DNA of 64,000 nt from Escherichia coli. GTDB taxonomy: Bacteria; Pseudomonadota; Gammaproteobacteria; Enterobacterales; Enterobacteriaceae. The position numbers were made by a program, and so were the translations under genes. Positions within the stretch are counted from its first letter, which is position 1; each line of letters begins with the position of its first letter. Where the stretch lies: assembly GCF_024223415.1 (NCBI RefSeq), contig NZ_CP100500.1; one strand, written 5' to 3'. This document shows positions 1 to 57,080 of the stretch, piece by piece. The notes under the pieces were generated by a model. The model was not told where the DNA came from. It saw only the letters and a program-made list of their open reading frames with translations, and did not search any database.

Positions 1-363
<363 letters not shown>

Positions 364-459
364 GTTATGTGTTCTTTAAAAATAAGGAAATGTTTGAATT
401 TAGTTGGTAGATTGTTGATGTGGAATAAATTTGTTTAAAAACAGATATGTATGCTTAGT
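364..459 (+). promoter_or_regulatory. CRISPR leader (AT-rich, expected to hold the array promoter and integration-host-factor site)
   Basis: 96 bp AT-rich segment between cas2 stop and first repeat; position matches the E. coli type I-E leader. Promoter elements not pinpointed. Confidence 0.7.
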
Positions 460-1342
460 GTGTTCCCCGCGCCAGCGGGGATAAACCGGTCAAATCGGTT
501 ACCTTAACCTGTTGAATGTGGTGTTCCCCGCGCCAGCGGGGATAAACCGAACGGCTACGGCACCGAGGTGACAAACCAGATGTGTTCCCCGCGCCAGCGG
601 GGATAAACCGAACTCCAGGATATTGCAAACCGCATAGTGGATGTGTTCCCCGCGCCAGCGGGGATAAACCGCCGTTGCGCTGGCATCGGGTGTACCTGTT
701 GTGGTGTTCCCCGCGCCAGCGGGGATAAACCGCCGTTGCGCTGGCATCGGGTGTACCTGTTGTGGTGTTCCCCGCGCCAGCGGGGATAAACCGGGCTTAC
801 ACGCCACCATGGCATCAAGAACGATGTGTTCCCCGCGCCAGCGGGGATAAACCGATTACGACTTCCGCACGCACCCACCGTTTGTAGTGTTCCCCGCGCC
901 AGCGGGGATAAACCGTTGGGCTAGGAGGAAGAGCATCATTAACATGGGTGTTCCCCGCGCCAGCGGGGATAAACCTGAGGCGGCTAAACCGTCGCGCACA
1001 CGAGCGACGTGTTCCCCGCGCCAGCGGGGATAAACCGCGTACTGCTTACTCCGTCATCGATGTATGAGTGTGTTCCCCGCGCCAGCGGGGATAAACCGTA
1101 CGTGTCGCCGTTACAGATTTCAGTCTGTTAGTGTTCCCCGCGCCAGCGGGGATAAACCGGGCGTCCAGTGATGCTTTCTGGTGCTCGAATAGTGTTCCCC
1201 GCGCCAGCGGGGATAAACCGCACGATTTTATGTGCCGCGTTGAGGCGTGGGCGTGTTCCCCGCGCCAGCGGGGATAAACCGGGCGCACTGGATGCGATGA
1301 TGGATATCACTTAGAATTCCCCGCCCCTGCGGTAGAACACCC
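460..1342 (+). CRISPR. Type I-E CRISPR array: 14 canonical 29-bp repeats GTGTTCCCCGCGCCAGCGGGGATAAACCG, one degenerate terminal repeat, 14 spacers of 32 bp (13 unique)
   Basis: Repeats start at 460, 521, 582, 643, 704, 765, 826, 887, 948, 1009, 1070, 1131, 1192, 1253 with exact 61-bp period. Terminal degenerate repeat 1314-1342 (GAATTCCCCGCCCCTGCGGTAGAACACCC, about 19/29 identity). Repeat 9 ends in T (976) instead of G. Spacers 672-703 and 733-764 are identical. Confidence 0.98.
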
Positions 1343-1362
1343 AGCTCCCATTTTCCAACCCA

Positions 1363-2400
1363 TCAAGACGCCTTCGCCAGCTCCTTCACCAACGGTAGCA
1401 TTATCCGCATAACATCACGGCAGCGACGTTCTATTCTTCCAGGAAGTGCCTTATCAATATGCTGTTGATTATCCAGTCTTACGTCATGCCAGCTATTTCC
1501 CGCAGGGAATGCGGCTGTTTTTGCGCGTTGCTGATAACCATCCTTATTCCCAAGATTCCAGTTAGTCGCTTCCACCGAAAGTACAGCAATGCCCGCTTTG
1601 TCGAATATTTCTGCGTCATTACAACACCCAGTGCCTTTCGGATAATTTTTATTCAAACCCGGATTGGTCGTTGCGGCTATTCCGTGACTGCGCGCAATTG
1701 CCAGCGCCCTGTCGCGCGTTAATTTCCTTACTGCCTCAGGGGTTTTTACACCGCTGTTGAAATACAATTTATCGCCAACAATTAAGTTATCGAGATTAAT
1801 CACCAGCAGCGTATTTTTCTTTTCGGTGTCACTCATCCGCTTGAGTAAATTCTCAGCGCCTAATTTCCCTTCCTCTTCGCCGCTGGTCGCCACAAATCGA
1901 ATACCATACTCGGTAGGCGTATTTTTCAGGCGTTCTGCCAGTTCCAGCATGACACCTAAACCTGCGGCGTTATCATCCATTCCTTGTAACGTCAGCCCGC
2001 CGAGATTGGCATCGGCGTCAGCATCGCTCAGCGGGGCGTAAGTATCCAGATGCGCCATAATGATGATCTGCTGCGGCGCTTTGCCTTCATGAGCGGCAAT
2101 CACCGTACTTCCCGTCACGTTATGCCAGCTCTTACGATTATCGCGGGCGGTATAAATATACCGACTATTAAATGTCCGAATATCACTGCGATAACCCATT
2201 TGCTGAAACTGTTGGCGAATATAATCGGCAGATAACATTTCTGCAGGAGTTCCGGTCATGCGTCCCGGAAAGAAAGTAGCAATATGTCGTGCCTGAGTAT
2301 TAGCAAAATCGCCAGGTTTAGGTGACGAGGCGTGTACGGGGAGAATAAAGCATACGCCGAGCGCCAGGGCAGCGGTACGGTGGCGCAATGCGGAAAACAT
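1363..2400 (-). CDS. iap: Alkaline phosphatase isozyme conversion aminopeptidase
   Basis: 345 aa ORF, signal-peptide-like N-terminus, matches E. coli Iap; conserved position next to the CRISPR array. Confidence 0.92.
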   Translation of the reverse strand: MFSALRHRTAALALGVCFILPVHASSPKPGDFANTQARHIATFFPGRMTGTPAEMLSADYIRQQFQQMGYRSDIRTFNSRYIYTARDNRKSWHNVTGSTVIAAHEGKAPQQIIIMAHLDTYAPLSDADADANLGGLTLQGMDDNAAGLGVMLELAERLKNTPTEYGIRFVATSGEEEGKLGAENLLKRMSDTEKKNTLLVINLDNLIVGDKLYFNSGVKTPEAVRKLTRDRALAIARSHGIAATTNPGLNKNYPKGTGCCNDAEIFDKAGIAVLSVEATNWNLGNKDGYQQRAKTAAFPAGNSWHDVRLDNQQHIDKALPGRIERRCRDVMRIMLPLVKELAKAS

Positions 2401-2651
2401 AGTGAGTCCTTAAATACCATGCAAATTTTTTTACCGCCATAGTATGAAACTGCCGCTGCGCTAAAACAATTTCAAATCTTCCTAAACGCCCGAAATCCGG
2501 TGCCTTAAGCACTTTTTGATATTAGCTTTGCCAAATCGTTATTCCGTTAAGGAACTACTCATTCTAATTGGTAATTTCATTCGTTCTCTTACGCTCCCTA
2601 TAGTCGAAACATCTGATGGCAAGAAAATAGCGGTATTGCAAAGGAACGGTT

Positions 2652-3560
2652 ATGGATCAAAAACGACTTACCCACCTACGACAGCTGGAGGCGGAAAGCA
2701 TCCACATCATTCGCGAGGTGGCGGCAGAATTCTCAAATCCGGTGATGCTCTACTCTATCGGTAAAGATTCCAGCGTCATGCTGCATCTGGCGCGCAAGGC
2801 GTTTTATCCAGGTACGCTGCCTTTCCCGTTGCTGCATGTCGATACCGGCTGGAAATTCCGCGAGATGTATGAGTTCCGCGATCGTACGGCGAAAGCCTAC
2901 GGCTGCGAGCTGCTGGTGCATAAAAACCCGGAAGGCGTGGCGATGGGGATTAATCCATTCGTGCACGGCAGCGCGAAACATACCGATATTATGAAGACCG
3001 AAGGCCTGAAGCAGGCGCTGAATAAATACGGTTTTGATGCCGCCTTCGGTGGTGCGCGCCGCGACGAAGAGAAATCCCGTGCTAAAGAGCGAATCTATTC
3101 TTTCCGTGATCGCTTCCATCGCTGGGATCCGAAAAATCAGCGCCCGGAGCTGTGGCACAACTACAACGGGCAAATTAATAAAGGCGAAAGCATCCGCGTC
3201 TTCCCGCTCTCTAACTGGACCGAGCAGGATATCTGGCAATACATCTGGCTGGAAAATATCGACATTGTGCCGCTGTATCTCGCTGCGGAACGTCCGGTTC
3301 TGGAACGCGACGGTATGTTGATGATGATTGATGACAACCGTATCGACCTGCAACAGGGCGAAGTGATTAAAAAACGGATGGTGCGTTTCCGTACGCTGGG
3401 CTGCTGGCCGCTGACCGGTGCGGTGGAGTCAAATGCACAAACACTGCCGGAGATCATCGAAGAGATGCTGGTTTCCACCACCAGTGAACGTCAGGGCCGC
3501 GTGATTGACCGCGACCAGGCGGGATCCATGGAGCTGAAAAAACGTCAGGGGTATTTTTAA
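2652..3560 (+). CDS. cysD: Sulfate adenylyltransferase subunit 2
   Basis: 302 aa; PAPS reductase-like fold motifs; cysD-cysN-cysC operon order. Confidence 0.95.
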
Positions 3561-33713: not shown

Positions 33714-33784
33714 TTTTTCAATAAGGAATCAGGACAGGGATGTTCTTGATGGGGTGAACCAGCTCTGATGCCAAATGCTAAATT

Positions 33785-33864
33785 GCCCGATGCGCTGCGC
33801 TTATCGGGCCTACATGTCGCACGAACTATGTAGGCCGGATAAGGCGTTCACGCCGCATCCGGCA
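33785..33864. repeat. REP/BIME pair (two inverted REP palindromic units) at the convergent hycI/ascB junction
   Basis: tgcccgatgcgctgcgcttatcgggcctaca and inverted copy tgtaggccggataaggcgttcacgccgcatccggca. Confidence 0.85.
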
Positions 33865-33871
33865 CGGTTAC

Positions 33872-36762
<2,891 letters not shown>

Positions 36763-41135: not shown

Positions 41136-41220
<85 letters not shown>

Positions 41221-41240
41221 TTTTGGGCACAGTAGCCCGC

Positions 41241-42374
41241 CTACACCGGCAATGTTTTCAACAATCCAAATGCCTCTTTCATCCGATCCTCACTGACCAC
41301 AAAGGCGCGAAGTTGGTCTGCATCGTCAACACCGCGCGCCACCATTCCCTGGCGTTCGGTATTAATTTGCCAGCGTAAATCCTGACGCTGGGTTTCGCCT
41401 GCCAGATGCAGCGGTAATTCCGGCGTTTTGATTTTCACCAGCATCGCCGGTAGTTTCAGTGGCGTGTTATTGCCGAGAAGATTTTTTGCCAGCACCATCG
41501 CGCTAAGTTGAATCGGCTGCAGGAACGGCAGTACCTGACCGTTAATTTCCGCGCAATCGCCCAGCGCGTAAATATCGGCATTACTGGTTTGCAGATAACT
41601 ATCGACGCAAACGCCGCGATTAATCGTCAGCCCGGCGCGTTGTGCCAGGGCTGTTTCCGGGCGCAGTCCGGTGGCGGCAATTACCGCATCCACTTCGATA
41701 CTACGCTGGCGGTCCAGCGTTGCCAGAATGCCAGAATCCGTTTTTTCCAGCCCCTGCAACTGAGATTTCAACAGCAGATGAACGCCCATCTCCGTCAACC
41801 GATGCTGCAAGCGACTGCTTACTTCCGGTGGCATTAACGACGCCAGAATACTGGCAGCGTTGTCGATTAGCGTAACCATTTTGCCTGCACGACAAAAATC
41901 CATCGCCAGTTCGCTACCAATCAAACCACCGCCAACAATCAACACGCGTCGGGCATTCCGCAGTTGCGTTTCACAGGCGCGATACTCTTGCTGACTATTT
42001 AACGTCAGCATTAACTCACGCCCAGGCACTGGCGGGACAAAGGCGCTGGCACCGGTTGCCAGCACCAGCTTGTCGTATTGCCACTGATTATTCTGGCTTT
42101 TCACCACACGGGCTTCGGCATCGATATCCGTCACCCAGGTTTGCGGAAACAGGAGCAGATTAAACTGCTCGGCAAATTCACCCGCCGTCTGGCGGGTAAG
42201 GTCGTCGGCACGTTGCCCCTGACTGATAACATGGCTGAGGTCAGGTTTGTTGTACTCATCCATGCTGTCGGCGGCAATCAGGGTTAATGGAATACTGGCG
42301 TCCTGTTTGCGAATATTTTTCACCAGTTGGCGGGCGGCGAAGCCCGAACCAATGATCACAATGCCGTTGCTCAT
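41241..42374 (-). CDS. norW: NADH:flavorubredoxin reductase
   Basis: 377 aa; FAD/NAD Rossmann motifs; overlaps norV stop. Confidence 0.94.
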
Positions 42375-47665: not shown

Positions 47666-47694
47666 AACTTTTCCTTAATGTAGTGGCGGAAGTC

Positions 47695-47726
47695 CTGTAG
47701 GCCTGATGAGCGTAGCGCATCAGGCA
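47695..47726. repeat. REP palindromic unit between srlD and gutM
   Basis: ctgtaggcctgatgagcgtagcgcatcaggca. Confidence 0.8.
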
Positions 47727-51940: not shown

Positions 51941-52434
51941 ATGACTGACAGTGAACTGATGCAGTTAAGCGAACAGGTTGGGCAGGCGCTGAAAGCCCGT
52001 GGCGCAACCGTAACAACTGCTGAGTCTTGTACCGGCGGTTGGGTAGCGAAAGTGATTACCGATATTGCCGGTAGCTCCGCCTGGTTTGAACGCGGATTTG
52101 TCACCTACAGTAACGAAGCCAAAGCGCAGATGATCGGCGTACGTGAAGAGACGCTGGCGCAGCATGGCGCGGTGAGCGAACCCGTCGTGGTGGAAATGGC
52201 GATAGGCGCACTGAAAGCGGCTCGTGCTGATTACGCCGTGTCTATTAGTGGTATCGCCGGGCCGGATGGCGGCAGTGAAGAGAAGCCTGTCGGCACCGTC
52301 TGGTTTGCTTTTGCCACTGCCCGCGGTGAAGGCATTACCCGGCGGGAATGCTTCAGCGGCGACCGTGATGCGGTGCGCCGTCAGGCTACTGCGTATGCAT
52401 TGCAGACCTTGTGGCAACAATTTCTACAAAACAC

Positions 52435-52438
<4 letters not shown>
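51941..52438 (+). CDS. pncC: NMN amidohydrolase PncC (CinA-like)
   Basis: 165 aa from MTDSELMQ; upstream of recA. Confidence 0.93.
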
Positions 52439-53579
<1,141 letters not shown>

Positions 53580-53599
53580 TCGTTCGTTATTGATGATAA

Positions 53600-53770
53600 T
53601 AGATAATGTGTGCACGGACGGTCCCCTCGCCCCTTTGGGGAGAGGGTTAGGGTGAGGGGAACAGGCCAGCACTGGCGTGAAAAATTACTCTCACCTCGAT
53701 CCTCTAACGAATTGGGCCTGCGGGAACATTCTGCACACTCATTGACTATTAAATCTGTTTATCAGCAAAA
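53600..53770. other. Palindrome-rich intergenic insertion between recA and recX (not recalled in K-12), with GC-rich nested inverted repeats at 53620-53660
   Basis: recA-recX gap is 242 bp; I recall about 70 bp in K-12. Core ggtCCCCTCgCCCCtttGGGGagaGGGttaGGGTGAGGGGaa. No ribosome-binding site or credible ORF. Confidence 0.5.
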
Positions 53771-53773
53771 CCT

Positions 53774-53803
53774 GGGTCGCATCTGCGGCCCTTTTGCTTT
53801 TTT
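53774..53803 (+). terminator. Hairpin + T-run terminator/attenuator between recA and recX
   Basis: GGGTCGC-atct-GCGGCCC followed by ttttgctttttt, 19 bp upstream of recX ATG. Confidence 0.75.
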
Positions 53804-53821
53804 AAGTTGTAAGGATATGCC

Positions 53822-54322
53822 ATGACAGAATCAACGTCCCGTCTCCCGGCATATGCTCGCCTGTTGGATCGTGCGGTACGCATTCTGGCGGTGCGCGATC
53901 ACAGTGAGCAAGAACTGCGACGTAAACTCGCGGCACCGATTATGGGCAAAAATGGCCCAGAAGAGATTGATGCTACGGCAGAAGATTACGAGCGCGTTAT
54001 TGCCTGGTGCCATGAACATGGCTATCTCGATGACAGCCGATTTGTTGCGCGCTTTATCGCCAGCCGTAGCCGCAAAGGTTATGGACCTGCGCGTATTCGC
54101 CAGGAACTGAATCAGAAAGGTATTTCCCGCGAAGCGACAGAAAAAGCGATGCGTGAATGTGACATCGACTGGTGCGCACTGGCGCGCGATCAGGCAACGC
54201 GAAAATATGGTGAACCTTTGCCAACTGTCTTTTCAGAAAAAGTTAAGATCCAGCGTTTTCTGCTCTATCGTGGCTATCTGATGGAAGATATCCAGGATAT
54301 TTGGCGAAATTTTGCCGACTGA
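53822..54322 (+). CDS. recX: RecA regulator RecX
   Basis: 166 aa; matches RecX. Confidence 0.95.
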
Positions 54323-54449
54323 ACGCATACGGTATTTTACTTCCCAGTCAAGAAAACTTATCTTATTCCCACTTTTCAGTTACCAGCCCGGCGGTTAAGA
54401 CACGCTGGAGCTGGTGGCGATATTTCGTTAGCTTGATTTCAGGATAATT

Positions 54450-57080
54450 ATGAGCAAGAGCACCGCTGAGATCCGTCAGGCGTTTCTCGACTTTTTCCAT
54501 AGTAAGGGACATCAGGTAGTTGCCAGCAGCTCCCTGGTACCCCATAACGACCCAACTTTGTTGTTTACCAACGCCGGGATGAACCAGTTCAAGGATGTGT
54601 TCCTTGGGCTCGACAAGCGTAATTATTCCCGCGCTACCACTTCCCAACGCTGCGTGCGTGCGGGTGGTAAACACAACGACTTGGAAAACGTCGGTTACAC
54701 CGCGCGTCACCATACCTTCTTCGAAATGCTGGGCAACTTCAGCTTCGGCGACTATTTCAAACACGATGCCATTCAGTTTGCATGGGAACTGCTGACCAGC
54801 GAAAAATGGTTTGCCCTGCCGAAAGAGCGTCTGTGGGTTACCGTCTATGAAAGCGACGACGAAGCCTACGAAATCTGGGAAAAAGAAGTAGGGATCCCGC
54901 GCGAACGTATTATTCGCATCGGCGATAACAAAGGTGCGCCATACGCATCTGACAACTTCTGGCAGATGGGTGACACTGGTCCGTGCGGCCCGTGCACCGA
55001 AATCTTCTACGATCACGGCGACCACATTTGGGGTGGCCCTCCGGGAAGTCCGGAAGAAGACGGCGACCGCTACATTGAGATCTGGAACATCGTCTTCATG
55101 CAGTTCAACCGCCAGGCCGATGGCACGATGGAACCGCTGCCGAAACCGTCTGTAGATACCGGTATGGGTCTGGAGCGTATTGCTGCGGTGCTGCAACACG
55201 TTAACTCTAACTATGACATCGACCTGTTCCGCACGTTGATCCAGGCGGTAGCGAAAGTCACTGGCGCAACCGATCTGAGCAATAAATCGCTGCGCGTAAT
55301 CGCTGACCACATTCGTTCTTGTGCGTTCCTGATCGCGGATGGCGTAATGCCGTCCAATGAAAACCGTGGTTATGTACTGCGTCGTATCATTCGTCGCGCA
55401 GTGCGTCACGGTAATATGCTCGGCGCGAAAGAAACCTTCTTCTACAAACTGGTTGGTCCGCTGATCGACGTTATGGGCTCTGCGGGTGAAGACCTGAAAC
55501 GCCAGCAGGCGCAGGTTGAGCAGGTGCTGAAGACTGAAGAAGAGCAGTTTGCTCGTACTCTGGAGCGCGGTCTGGCGTTGCTGGATGAAGAGCTGGCAAA
55601 ACTTTCTGGTGATACGCTGGATGGTGAAACTGCTTTCCGTCTGTACGACACCTATGGCTTCCCGGTTGACCTGACGGCTGATGTTTGTCGTGAGCGCAAC
55701 ATCAAAGTTGACGAAGCTGGTTTTGAAGCTGCAATGGAAGAGCAGCGTCGTCGCGCGCGCGAAGCCAGCGGCTTTGGTGCCGATTACAACGCAATGATCC
55801 GTGTTGACAGTGCATCTGAATTTAAAGGCTATGACCATCTGGAACTGAACGGCAAAGTGACCGCGCTGTTTGTTGATGGTAAAGCGGTTGATGCCATCAA
55901 TGCAGGCCAGGAAGCTGTGGTCGTGCTGGATCAAACGCCATTCTATGCGGAATCCGGCGGTCAGGTTGGTGATAAAGGCGAACTGAAAGGCGCTAACTTC
56001 TCCTTTGCGGTGGAAGATACGCAGAAATACGGCCAGGCGATTGGTCACATCGGTAAACTTGCTGCGGGTTCTCTGAAAGTGGGCGACGCGGTGCAGGCTG
56101 ATGTTGATGAAGCTCGTCGCGCCCGTATTCGTCTGAATCACTCCGCAACGCACCTGATGCACGCTGCGCTGCGCCAGGTTCTGGGTACTCATGTAACGCA
56201 GAAAGGTTCACTGGTTAACGACAAGGTGCTGCGCTTCGACTTCTCACACAACGAAGCGATGAAACCAGAAGAGATTCGTGCGGTCGAAGACTTGGTGAAC
56301 GCACAGATTCGTCGCAATTTGCCGATCGAAACCAACATCATGGATCTCGAAGCGGCGAAAGCGAAAGGTGCGATGGCGCTGTTCGGCGAGAAGTATGATG
56401 AGCGCGTACGCGTGCTGAGCATGGGCGATTTCTCCACCGAGCTGTGTGGCGGTACTCACGCCAGCCGCACTGGTGATATTGGTCTGTTCCGCATCATCTC
56501 TGAATCGGGTACTGCTGCAGGCGTTCGTCGTATCGAAGCGGTAACCGGAGAAGGTGCTATCGCCACCGTTCATGCAGACAGCGATCGCTTAAGCGAAGTC
56601 GCACATCTGCTGAAAGGCGATAGCAATAATCTGGCTGATAAAGTGCGCTCAGTACTGGAACGTACGCGTCAGTTAGAAAAAGAACTACAACAGCTTAAAG
56701 AACAAGCTGCCGCACAGGAGAGCGCAAATCTTTCCAGTAAGGCAATTGATGTTAATGGTGTTAAGCTGTTGGTTAGCGAGCTTAGCGGTGTTGAGCCGAA
56801 AATGTTGCGTACCATGGTTGACGATTTAAAAAATCAGCTGGGGTCGACAATTATCGTGCTGGCAACGGTAGCCGAAGGTAAGGTTTCTCTGATTGCAGGC
56901 GTATCTAAGGACGTCACAGATCGTGTGAAAGCAGGGGAACTGATTGGTATGGTCGCTCAGCAGGTGGGCGGCAAGGGTGGTGGACGTCCTGACATGGCGC
57001 AAGCCGGTGGTACGGATGCTGCGGCCTTACCTGCAGCGTTAGCCAGTGTGAAAGGCTGGGTCAGCGCGAAATTGCAATAA
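54450..57080 (+). CDS. alaS: Alanine--tRNA ligase
   Basis: 876 aa; class II aaRS motifs. Confidence 0.98.

Follow-up and report, generated by a model that had tools for sequence, protein, structure and literature searches.

A paired BoxC repeat in the long form of the recA-recX spacer of Escherichia coli

Analysis of the intergenic region between recA and recX in a 64,000-nucleotide stretch of E. coli DNA (RefSeq assembly GCF_024223415.1, contig NZ_CP100500.1; hereafter the window) showed that the spacer carries a copy of the BoxC repeat in its paired form, upstream of an intact recA terminator. We consider it very probable that the extra DNA is one such paired copy, passively transcribed and carried along as a near-neutral passenger. 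Its identity, architecture and copy number, the dimorphism and the occurrence in other Escherichia lineages are shown below; we infer the neutrality and the mode of arrival. According to this scenario, a BoxC pair made up of an intact A unit, a central spacer, an inverted B unit that has since decayed, and terminal motifs would have settled between the recA stop codon and the terminator, replacing 16 nt of a ~68-nt ancestral spacer in a common ancestor of E. coli and at least two cryptic Escherichia lineages. It now segregates in E. coli as a presence/absence dimorphism. The element is non-coding, with neither promoter nor terminator of its own, and would be carried passively in transcripts, both as part of the recA 3′ UTR and in recA-recX read-through RNA, as a hairpin of about 155 nt, most likely with almost no selective effect.

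The recA-recX spacer (53580–53821) was 242 bp long in the window and 68 bp long in K-12 MG1655 (NC_000913.3, 2822640–2822707), in agreement with the value of about 70 bp that a sequence-only reading of this DNA had given for K-12. The net excess of 174 bp also fitted the size of the "about 170-bp insertion" proposed in that reading, but the event was not a clean insertion: between TAATCGT and GGGTCGC, 190 nt in the window stand in place of 16 nt in K-12. The flanking genes were nearly identical (999/1000 for the last 1000 nt of recA), the alignment placed all differences within the spacer, and the ribosome-binding region of recX was the same in both sequences. The sequence-only reading had offered to withdraw its proposal if K-12 and other strains had the identical 242-bp spacer; two forms were found instead, and the element is absent from the K-12 recA-recX locus. 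RefSeq annotates recA and recX at the corresponding locus in other genomes and marks no feature in the spacer. Since K-12 differs in the 16 nt by the terminator and therefore offers no clean empty site, the borders of the element were taken from a family alignment of all 18 K-12 TM-ECO loci, TM-ECO being another name of the BoxC motif. The features of the region are as follows:

52518–53579, + strand: recA coding sequence, from the ORF table; its stop codon TAA is 53577–53579.
53580–53589, + strand: what is left of the ancestral spacer after the recA stop codon, TCGTTCGTTA, from the alignment with K-12, which reads TCGTCTTGTT... here.
About 53590–53773, + strand: the whole repeat element (~184 bp), a BoxC pair with terminal motifs; limits from the alignment of K-12 BoxC pairs.
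53590–53599, + strand: left terminal motif TTGATGATAA (family consensus cTGATGACAAa), with its inverted-repeat partner at 53759–53768 (90%).
53606–53616, + strand: left arm of the terminal inverted repeat (TIR) of the sequence-only reading, AATGTGTGCAC, within the family-conserved BoxC flank gtGCaCgGaCgGTC (53606–53623).
53624–53659, + strand: intact BoxC/PIT/TM-ECO motif of type A 'mm', CCCTCGCCCCTTTGGGGAGAGGGTTAGGGTGAGGGG, identical in 36/36 positions to MG1655 TM-ECO nos. 7, 11 and 15 (Table 1 of PMC4666352).
53660–53686, + strand: spacer at the centre of the pair, AACAGGCCAGCACTGGCGTGAAAAATT, which includes a small apical hairpin and lies at the apex of the predicted hairpin.
53687–53724, − strand: decayed inverted type-B BoxC, ACTCTCACCTCGATCCTCTAACGAATTGGGCCTGCGGG on the + strand, aligned column for column with intact inverted type-B copies of K-12 pairs.
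53732–53743, + strand: right arm of the earlier TIR, TGCACACTCATT, forming an inverted-repeat pair with the left arm and lying in the mirror flank.
53759–53773, + strand: right terminal motif TTATCAGCAA (53759–53768) plus AACCT (family consensus TTTGTCAGCAATCTCAG), abutting the terminator stem.
53774–53805, + strand: recA intrinsic terminator, identical to that of K-12, with the stem-loop GGGTCGCATCTGCGGCCC (53774–53791) followed by a T run; from the terminator scan and the alignment.
53822–54322, + strand: recX coding sequence, from the ORF table.

Judged by its sequence, the extra DNA is BoxC, a family already described, and the copy at this locus is already in a published table. The intact motif shows the three-block layout of BoxC, with CCCTCNCCC, a loop, GGGNGNGGG, a loop (TTA or CCG) and GGGNGAGGG within the typical 34–37 nt. 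The TM-ECO motif corresponds to the BoxC repeat of the 1990s and to what Hoyne and Maher called the PIT (potential intrastrand triplex) element, and each of its 23 copies in MG1655 is intergenic (Holder et al., 2015; PMC4666352). The GC-rich string pointed out in the sequence-only reading was found at 53620–53660 as described; its 23-nt core, GGGGAGAGGGTTAGGGTGAGGGG, occurred once in the window and in none of 100 dinucleotide-preserving shuffles (0/100). Like other BoxC repeats, the recA-recX copy is intergenic and belongs to a multi-copy, strain-variable family: its BoxC-containing part (53610–53705) matched other loci at 85–90% identity, and the median number of megablast places in a genome was 7. 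TM-ECO no. 9 is located between fabI (formerly envM) and ycjD; the first account of BoxC is reportedly that of Bergler et al. in 1992, in their paper on envM.

The published copy is TM-ECO no. 423 in Table S8 of PMC4666352 (NC_013364, 3386324–3386289; E. coli O111:H- 11128), whose coordinates fall within the 242-bp recA-recX spacer of that strain. It was placed at this locus by its coordinates; a search of the supplement of Holder et al. for the gene names recA, recX and oraA gave no match. From their position relative to the gcvP copy, TM-ECO nos. 367 (O103:H2) and 395 (O26:H11) probably represent the same locus. For the type A mm oligonucleotide a Tm of about 74 °C has been reported, and DMS footprinting in vivo gave no protection (PMC4666352). 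The open-access literature yielded nothing usable on earlier descriptions of BoxC or BIME. The RSA repeat, also named in the sequence-only reading and listed in a table of PMC5172473 at 150/151 bp with 6 K-12 copies, is of a size class similar to that of the window element.

The element aligned from end to end, flanks and central spacer included, with the K-12 A+B pairs at gcvP-ygfF, fepB-entC, alx-sstT and hrpB-mrcB, and thus has the paired form found at five K-12 loci, in which a conserved central spacer is flanked by a type-A unit and an inverted type-B unit. The central spacer (53660–53686) was homologous to those of the gcvP-ygfF, fepB-entC and alx-sstT pairs. In the type-B unit (53687–53724), about two thirds of the positions match by a hand count on the alignment and the triplex motif is lost, which, in contrast to intact pairs, leaves the window copy with a single intact triplex motif. 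The left terminal motif is kept 25–35 nt upstream of the type-A BoxC at K-12 gcvP, alx, fimH, fepB and yihR, and the left end of the recA-recX element is also the point at which strains cease to be homologous at the gcvP locus; the right terminal motif of Escherichia sp. E1V33 reads CAGCAATCTCT. The imperfect inverted repeats noted earlier near 53606 and 53742 were both present, and both lie within a pair of 30-nt arms (53597–53626/53722–53751; 70% complementary), outside of which the terminal motifs TTGATGATAA and TTATCAGCAA form a further inverted pair. Because the element is a BoxC pair, the earlier TIR arms are the outer parts of its two inverted BoxC units. As proposed in the sequence-only reading, the element lies in the recA 3′ UTR upstream of the terminator hairpin, between the recA stop codon and the intact terminator, and it differs from the other BoxC copies in being placed inside an operon, ahead of the terminator that gates recX.

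The inverted ends raise the question of whether this is a true MITE, that is, a non-autonomous transposon bounded by terminal inverted repeats and mobilised by a transposase that it does not itself encode. A size of about 184 bp, imperfect inverted ends together with the 30-nt inner pair, presence/absence polymorphism, and terminal motifs that are conserved across copies would all suit such an element, as would its likeness to the bacterial MITEs ERIC/IRU, Correia/NEMIS and RUP, which are likewise non-coding, 100–200 bp long, strain-variable, bounded by inverted ends and able to form a long hairpin when transcribed. We nevertheless regard this origin as very improbable. Unlike those elements, the BoxC element has no target-site duplication and no known cognate insertion sequence or transposase: a direct-repeat search found no duplication flanking it with either the earlier or the family-based borders, the short direct repeats at the locus lying only inside the element or inside recA. 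Moreover, removing the element from the long allele does not give the short, "empty" one, and many family members are single or truncated units or fusions with REP sequences. We know of no insertion sequence with such ends, of no enzyme that mobilises BoxC and of no partner transposase. No link of TM-ECO to transposons, phages or plasmids was found by Holder et al. (PMC4666352).

Of the small non-autonomous repeat suggested in the sequence-only reading, the boxC type was borne out by the 36/36 match, whereas 'MITE' serves only as a descriptive label for inverted ends and for presence or absence among genomes. A single-copy element lacking inverted ends or a target duplication had been named there as a refuting finding; the element is multi-copy and has inverted ends, but no target duplication. 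Since the junctions are not clean and 16 nt of the short allele were replaced, the arrival mechanism cannot be read from the sequence. The gcvP-ygfF locus was considered as a second empty site and rejected, as strains without the BoxC pair there are also without ygfF and carry BIME-1 in its place. By reading, the ERIC core CCCCAGGAGCTTAC...GTGACTGGGGTGAGCG was absent from the window spacer; it was present in the recA-recX spacer of Silvania confinis (L019). Additionally, megablast placed BoxC on plasmids at 9 places in total, compared with the lack of a plasmid association in PMC4666352, and a 38-nt BoxC-core stretch with a 100% match was found at positions 1627–1664 of NZ_CP074792.1, a 154.7-kb record of E. 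coli 94_0962.

The long spacer was present in 1634/5426 complete E. coli genomes (about 30%). Short-spacer genomes had 67–68 bp, with zero intermediate lengths in a spread sample of 60 rows. The short form was found in K-12, a BL21(DE3) derivative and O157:H7, and the long form in O111:H- 11128 and O145 RM8988-C1 and probably also in O103:H2 and O26:H11. TM-ECO copies number 25–30 in O103, O26, O111, SE11, IAI1, 55989 and W, 19–24 in K-12, the BL21/REL606 strains, HS and ATCC 8739, 10–11 in O157 and O55, and 1–2 in CFT073, UTI89, S88 and the like (supplement of PMC4666352). The long allele also occurred in BoxC-poor genomes (O145 RM8988-C1 and strain 95-3192, with 2 megablast places each), indicating that its history involves recombination or retained polymorphism. 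In descending order of count, the TM-ECO classes track phylogroups B1, A, E and B2.

A scan of relatives, covering one genome per species with RecX (79 loci), showed that a spacer of ~68 bp is the norm across the Enterobacteriaceae. E. whittamii and another Escherichia representative (L006) share the exact short sequence of K-12, TCGTCTTGTTTGATACACAA, which also occurs at the left of the E. albertii spacer. Both the norm and the occurrence of the K-12 sequence in E. whittamii and the second Escherichia indicate that the short length is ancestral. The long form was present in Escherichia sp. E1V33 (242 bp; 3 differences inside the element by hand count), of which recA and recX were 97.8 and 95.2% identical to those of the window, and, decayed and partly deleted, in Escherichia sp. 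MOD1-EC7003; its presence in these two cryptic lineages indicates that it is old as well. Both spacer alleles thus appear to be old, and the pattern within E. coli fits a retained polymorphism shuffled by recombination.

It could be argued instead that the long spacer is the older state within E. coli and that the 68-bp allele is secondary, regenerated through a deletion or brought back through recombination with a lineage carrying the short form. The long alleles of E1V33 and MOD1-EC7003 diverge to a degree similar to that of the flanking genes, and within E. coli the flanks of long and short alleles are nearly identical with differences in the spacer only, as expected after recombination. 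This order of events is nonetheless rather unlikely in our view: the K-12 short sequence in other Escherichia, including the left part of the E. albertii spacer, and the ~68-bp norm in other genera make the short allele at least as old as the long one.

Folded as RNA, positions 53597–53751 formed one long imperfect hairpin (−94.9 kcal/mol; z = −4.5) next to which the terminator hairpin was retained; the DNA fold of the element had z = −3.6. On the + strand, 53637–53659 is the G-rich BoxC half (GGGG AGA GGG TTA GGG TGA GGGG), which lies on the recA sense strand. The recA transcript is accordingly predicted from sequence to contain a canonical four-tract G-quadruplex motif at 53637–53659, in competition with the hairpin. 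A scan with Rfam covariance models (52000–55000, both strands, E ≤ 1) gave no match, and a promoter/terminator scan returned no sigma-70-like promoter and, as terminator, the known one of recA alone.

The coding potential of the spacer is limited to a 71-aa frame with a GTG start (53610–53825), listed in the ORF table. We give practically no credence to a real small gene here and rejected the frame as the BoxC repeat read as protein: it crosses the BoxC element, its ...PFGERVRVRG... is the translated motif, it overlaps the start of recX with no ribosome-binding site visible, and it is missing in about 70% of E. coli and broken in MOD1-EC7003. The sequence-only reading had likewise seen no credible ORF or ribosome-binding site.

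Lying within the transcribed recA 3′ UTR, touching the terminator stem and having a very stable predicted structure, the element could also play a cis-regulatory role in the recA-recX operon, with its hairpin or an RNA G-quadruplex altering recA mRNA stability or recX read-through, in which case RecX dosage would differ between long- and short-spacer strains. Co-transcription of the two genes runs by read-through of the terminator. In E. coli, recX is reportedly co-transcribed with recA, a report attributed to Pages et al. in DNA Repair 2:273 of 2003 and cited in PMC3062782; in addition, among the records listed, long alleles were at least 99% identical to the window. We nevertheless judge a regulatory role unlikely. 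The terminator and the ribosome-binding region of recX are unaltered, and about 70% of E. coli do without the element. The decay of one arm of the pair and the loss of most of the element in MOD1-EC7003 are what would be expected of neutral sequence. Furthermore, according to the passages of PMC4666352 that summarise them, tests of PIT/BoxC elements detected neither promoter nor terminator activity, and RNA polymerase was unaffected; polymerase arrest in vitro and an association of PIT/BoxC with local genomic variability are also reported in those passages. A near-neutral BoxC passenger thus remains the reading that we favour.

The surroundings of the element were also compared with those of REP-containing elements. 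A pattern scan detected no REP (PU) palindromes (GCCGGATGCGGCG...GCCTAC) in 53580–53821 and found REP sequences elsewhere in the window, at about 33.8, 41.2 and 47.7 kb. These comprise BIME-type pairs at 33766–33880 and 41138–41260 and a single REP at about 47680–47725 on the minus strand; the element at 33766 has a flank, CTGATGCCAAATGCTAAATTGCC, similar to the left terminal motif of BoxC pairs.

In MOD1-EC7003 the recA-recX spacer is 1022 bp long (L005, 479–1500) and contains, at 597–1471 of the same record, the decayed BoxC followed by five tandem BIME-1 units (Tandem Repeats Finder: period 169, 5.1 copies, 94% matches). A copy of the recA terminator stem-loop stands before each unit, and of the six copies only the last is followed by a T run. 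The 238-bp spacer of E. albertii NBRC 107761 (L007, 1263–1500) holds a single BIME-1 (Z2 REP, IHF-like L motif, Y REP) in the orientation opposite to that of the MOD1-EC7003 units, with a degenerate copy of the terminator stem-loop (GGGACGTATCTGCGAC) on one side and an intact one on the other; the sequence at its right junction, TTTGTCAGCAAAACCTGGGTCGC, is nearly identical to TTTATCAGCAAAACCTGGGTCGC of the window. Silvania confinis has an ERIC/IRU-like insert in a 195-bp spacer, two other loci (L061, L066) contain partial ERIC-like sequence, and Salmonella arizonae and several Citrobacter (L008–L015) have about 35–50 extra spacer bases with small hairpins. In the record of Leclercia adecarboxylata NCTC13032 (L078), the recA frame stays open until 1508 and thereby overlaps the recX start at 1501, and the RecX match is 499 bases long, which suggests a frameshift or an assembly error.

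At the gcvP locus of K-12 (L002, 1975–2170), the BoxC pair directly follows the gcvP terminator (TTTTTAG) and precedes ygfF; in O157:H7 FRIK2533 and ATCC 25922 (L099 and L100, 1375–1560), a decayed BIME-1 starts from the same base and ygfF is absent. At K-12 fimH-gntP (L098) and frlR-yhfS (L086), a type-A BoxC unit is fused to a REP, forming BoxC-REP hybrids, and the left flank at fimH-gntP, CAGACTGATGACAAAG, resembles the BIME-1 flank.

Overall, the recA-recX spacer is occupied by BoxC in E. coli and E1V33, by BoxC plus five BIME-1 units in MOD1-EC7003, and by BIME-1 in E. albertii. This distribution suggests that the foot of the recA terminator is a landing site used repeatedly by BoxC, BIME-1 and ERIC-like elements across the Enterobacteriaceae. 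BoxC pairs and BIME-1/RIP elements are alike in that a central spacer separates two inverted palindromic units, the terminal motifs are similar (left CAGACTGATGACAAA, right TTTGTCAGCAATCTCAG), and both land at the foot of terminators: BIME-1 occupies the recA-recX spacer in E. albertii and MOD1-EC7003, and the junction behind the gcvP terminator in O157:H7 and ATCC 25922. The window element differs in having no REP/PU, IHF-type L motif or GTAG tetranucleotide, and duplicated terminator hairpins flank the BIME-1 insertions at the recA-recX spacer but not the BoxC element. Because of the similar ends, the shared sites beside terminators, the mutual replacement at orthologous sites and the BoxC-REP hybrids, for all of which there are few examples, a kinship can be proposed, and we tentatively raise the possibility, doubtful as it still is, that BoxC pairs are a second "cargo" of a BIME-1-type mosaic element rather than a separate repeat family. 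If so, BoxC would have a mobilisation or targeting route in common with REP/BIME, for which a RAYT-type enzyme or template switching at hairpins would be candidates.

The main value of these findings lies in annotation: a known repeat accounts for the 174 additional bases. In about 30% of complete E. coli genomes, the SOS transcript that joins recA with recX, its inhibitor, contains a strongly structured insert, and 174 nt of such structure could alter mRNA decay or read-through. Comparisons of RecX dosage or of the recA 3′ end between strains should thus take the long or short form of the spacer into account.
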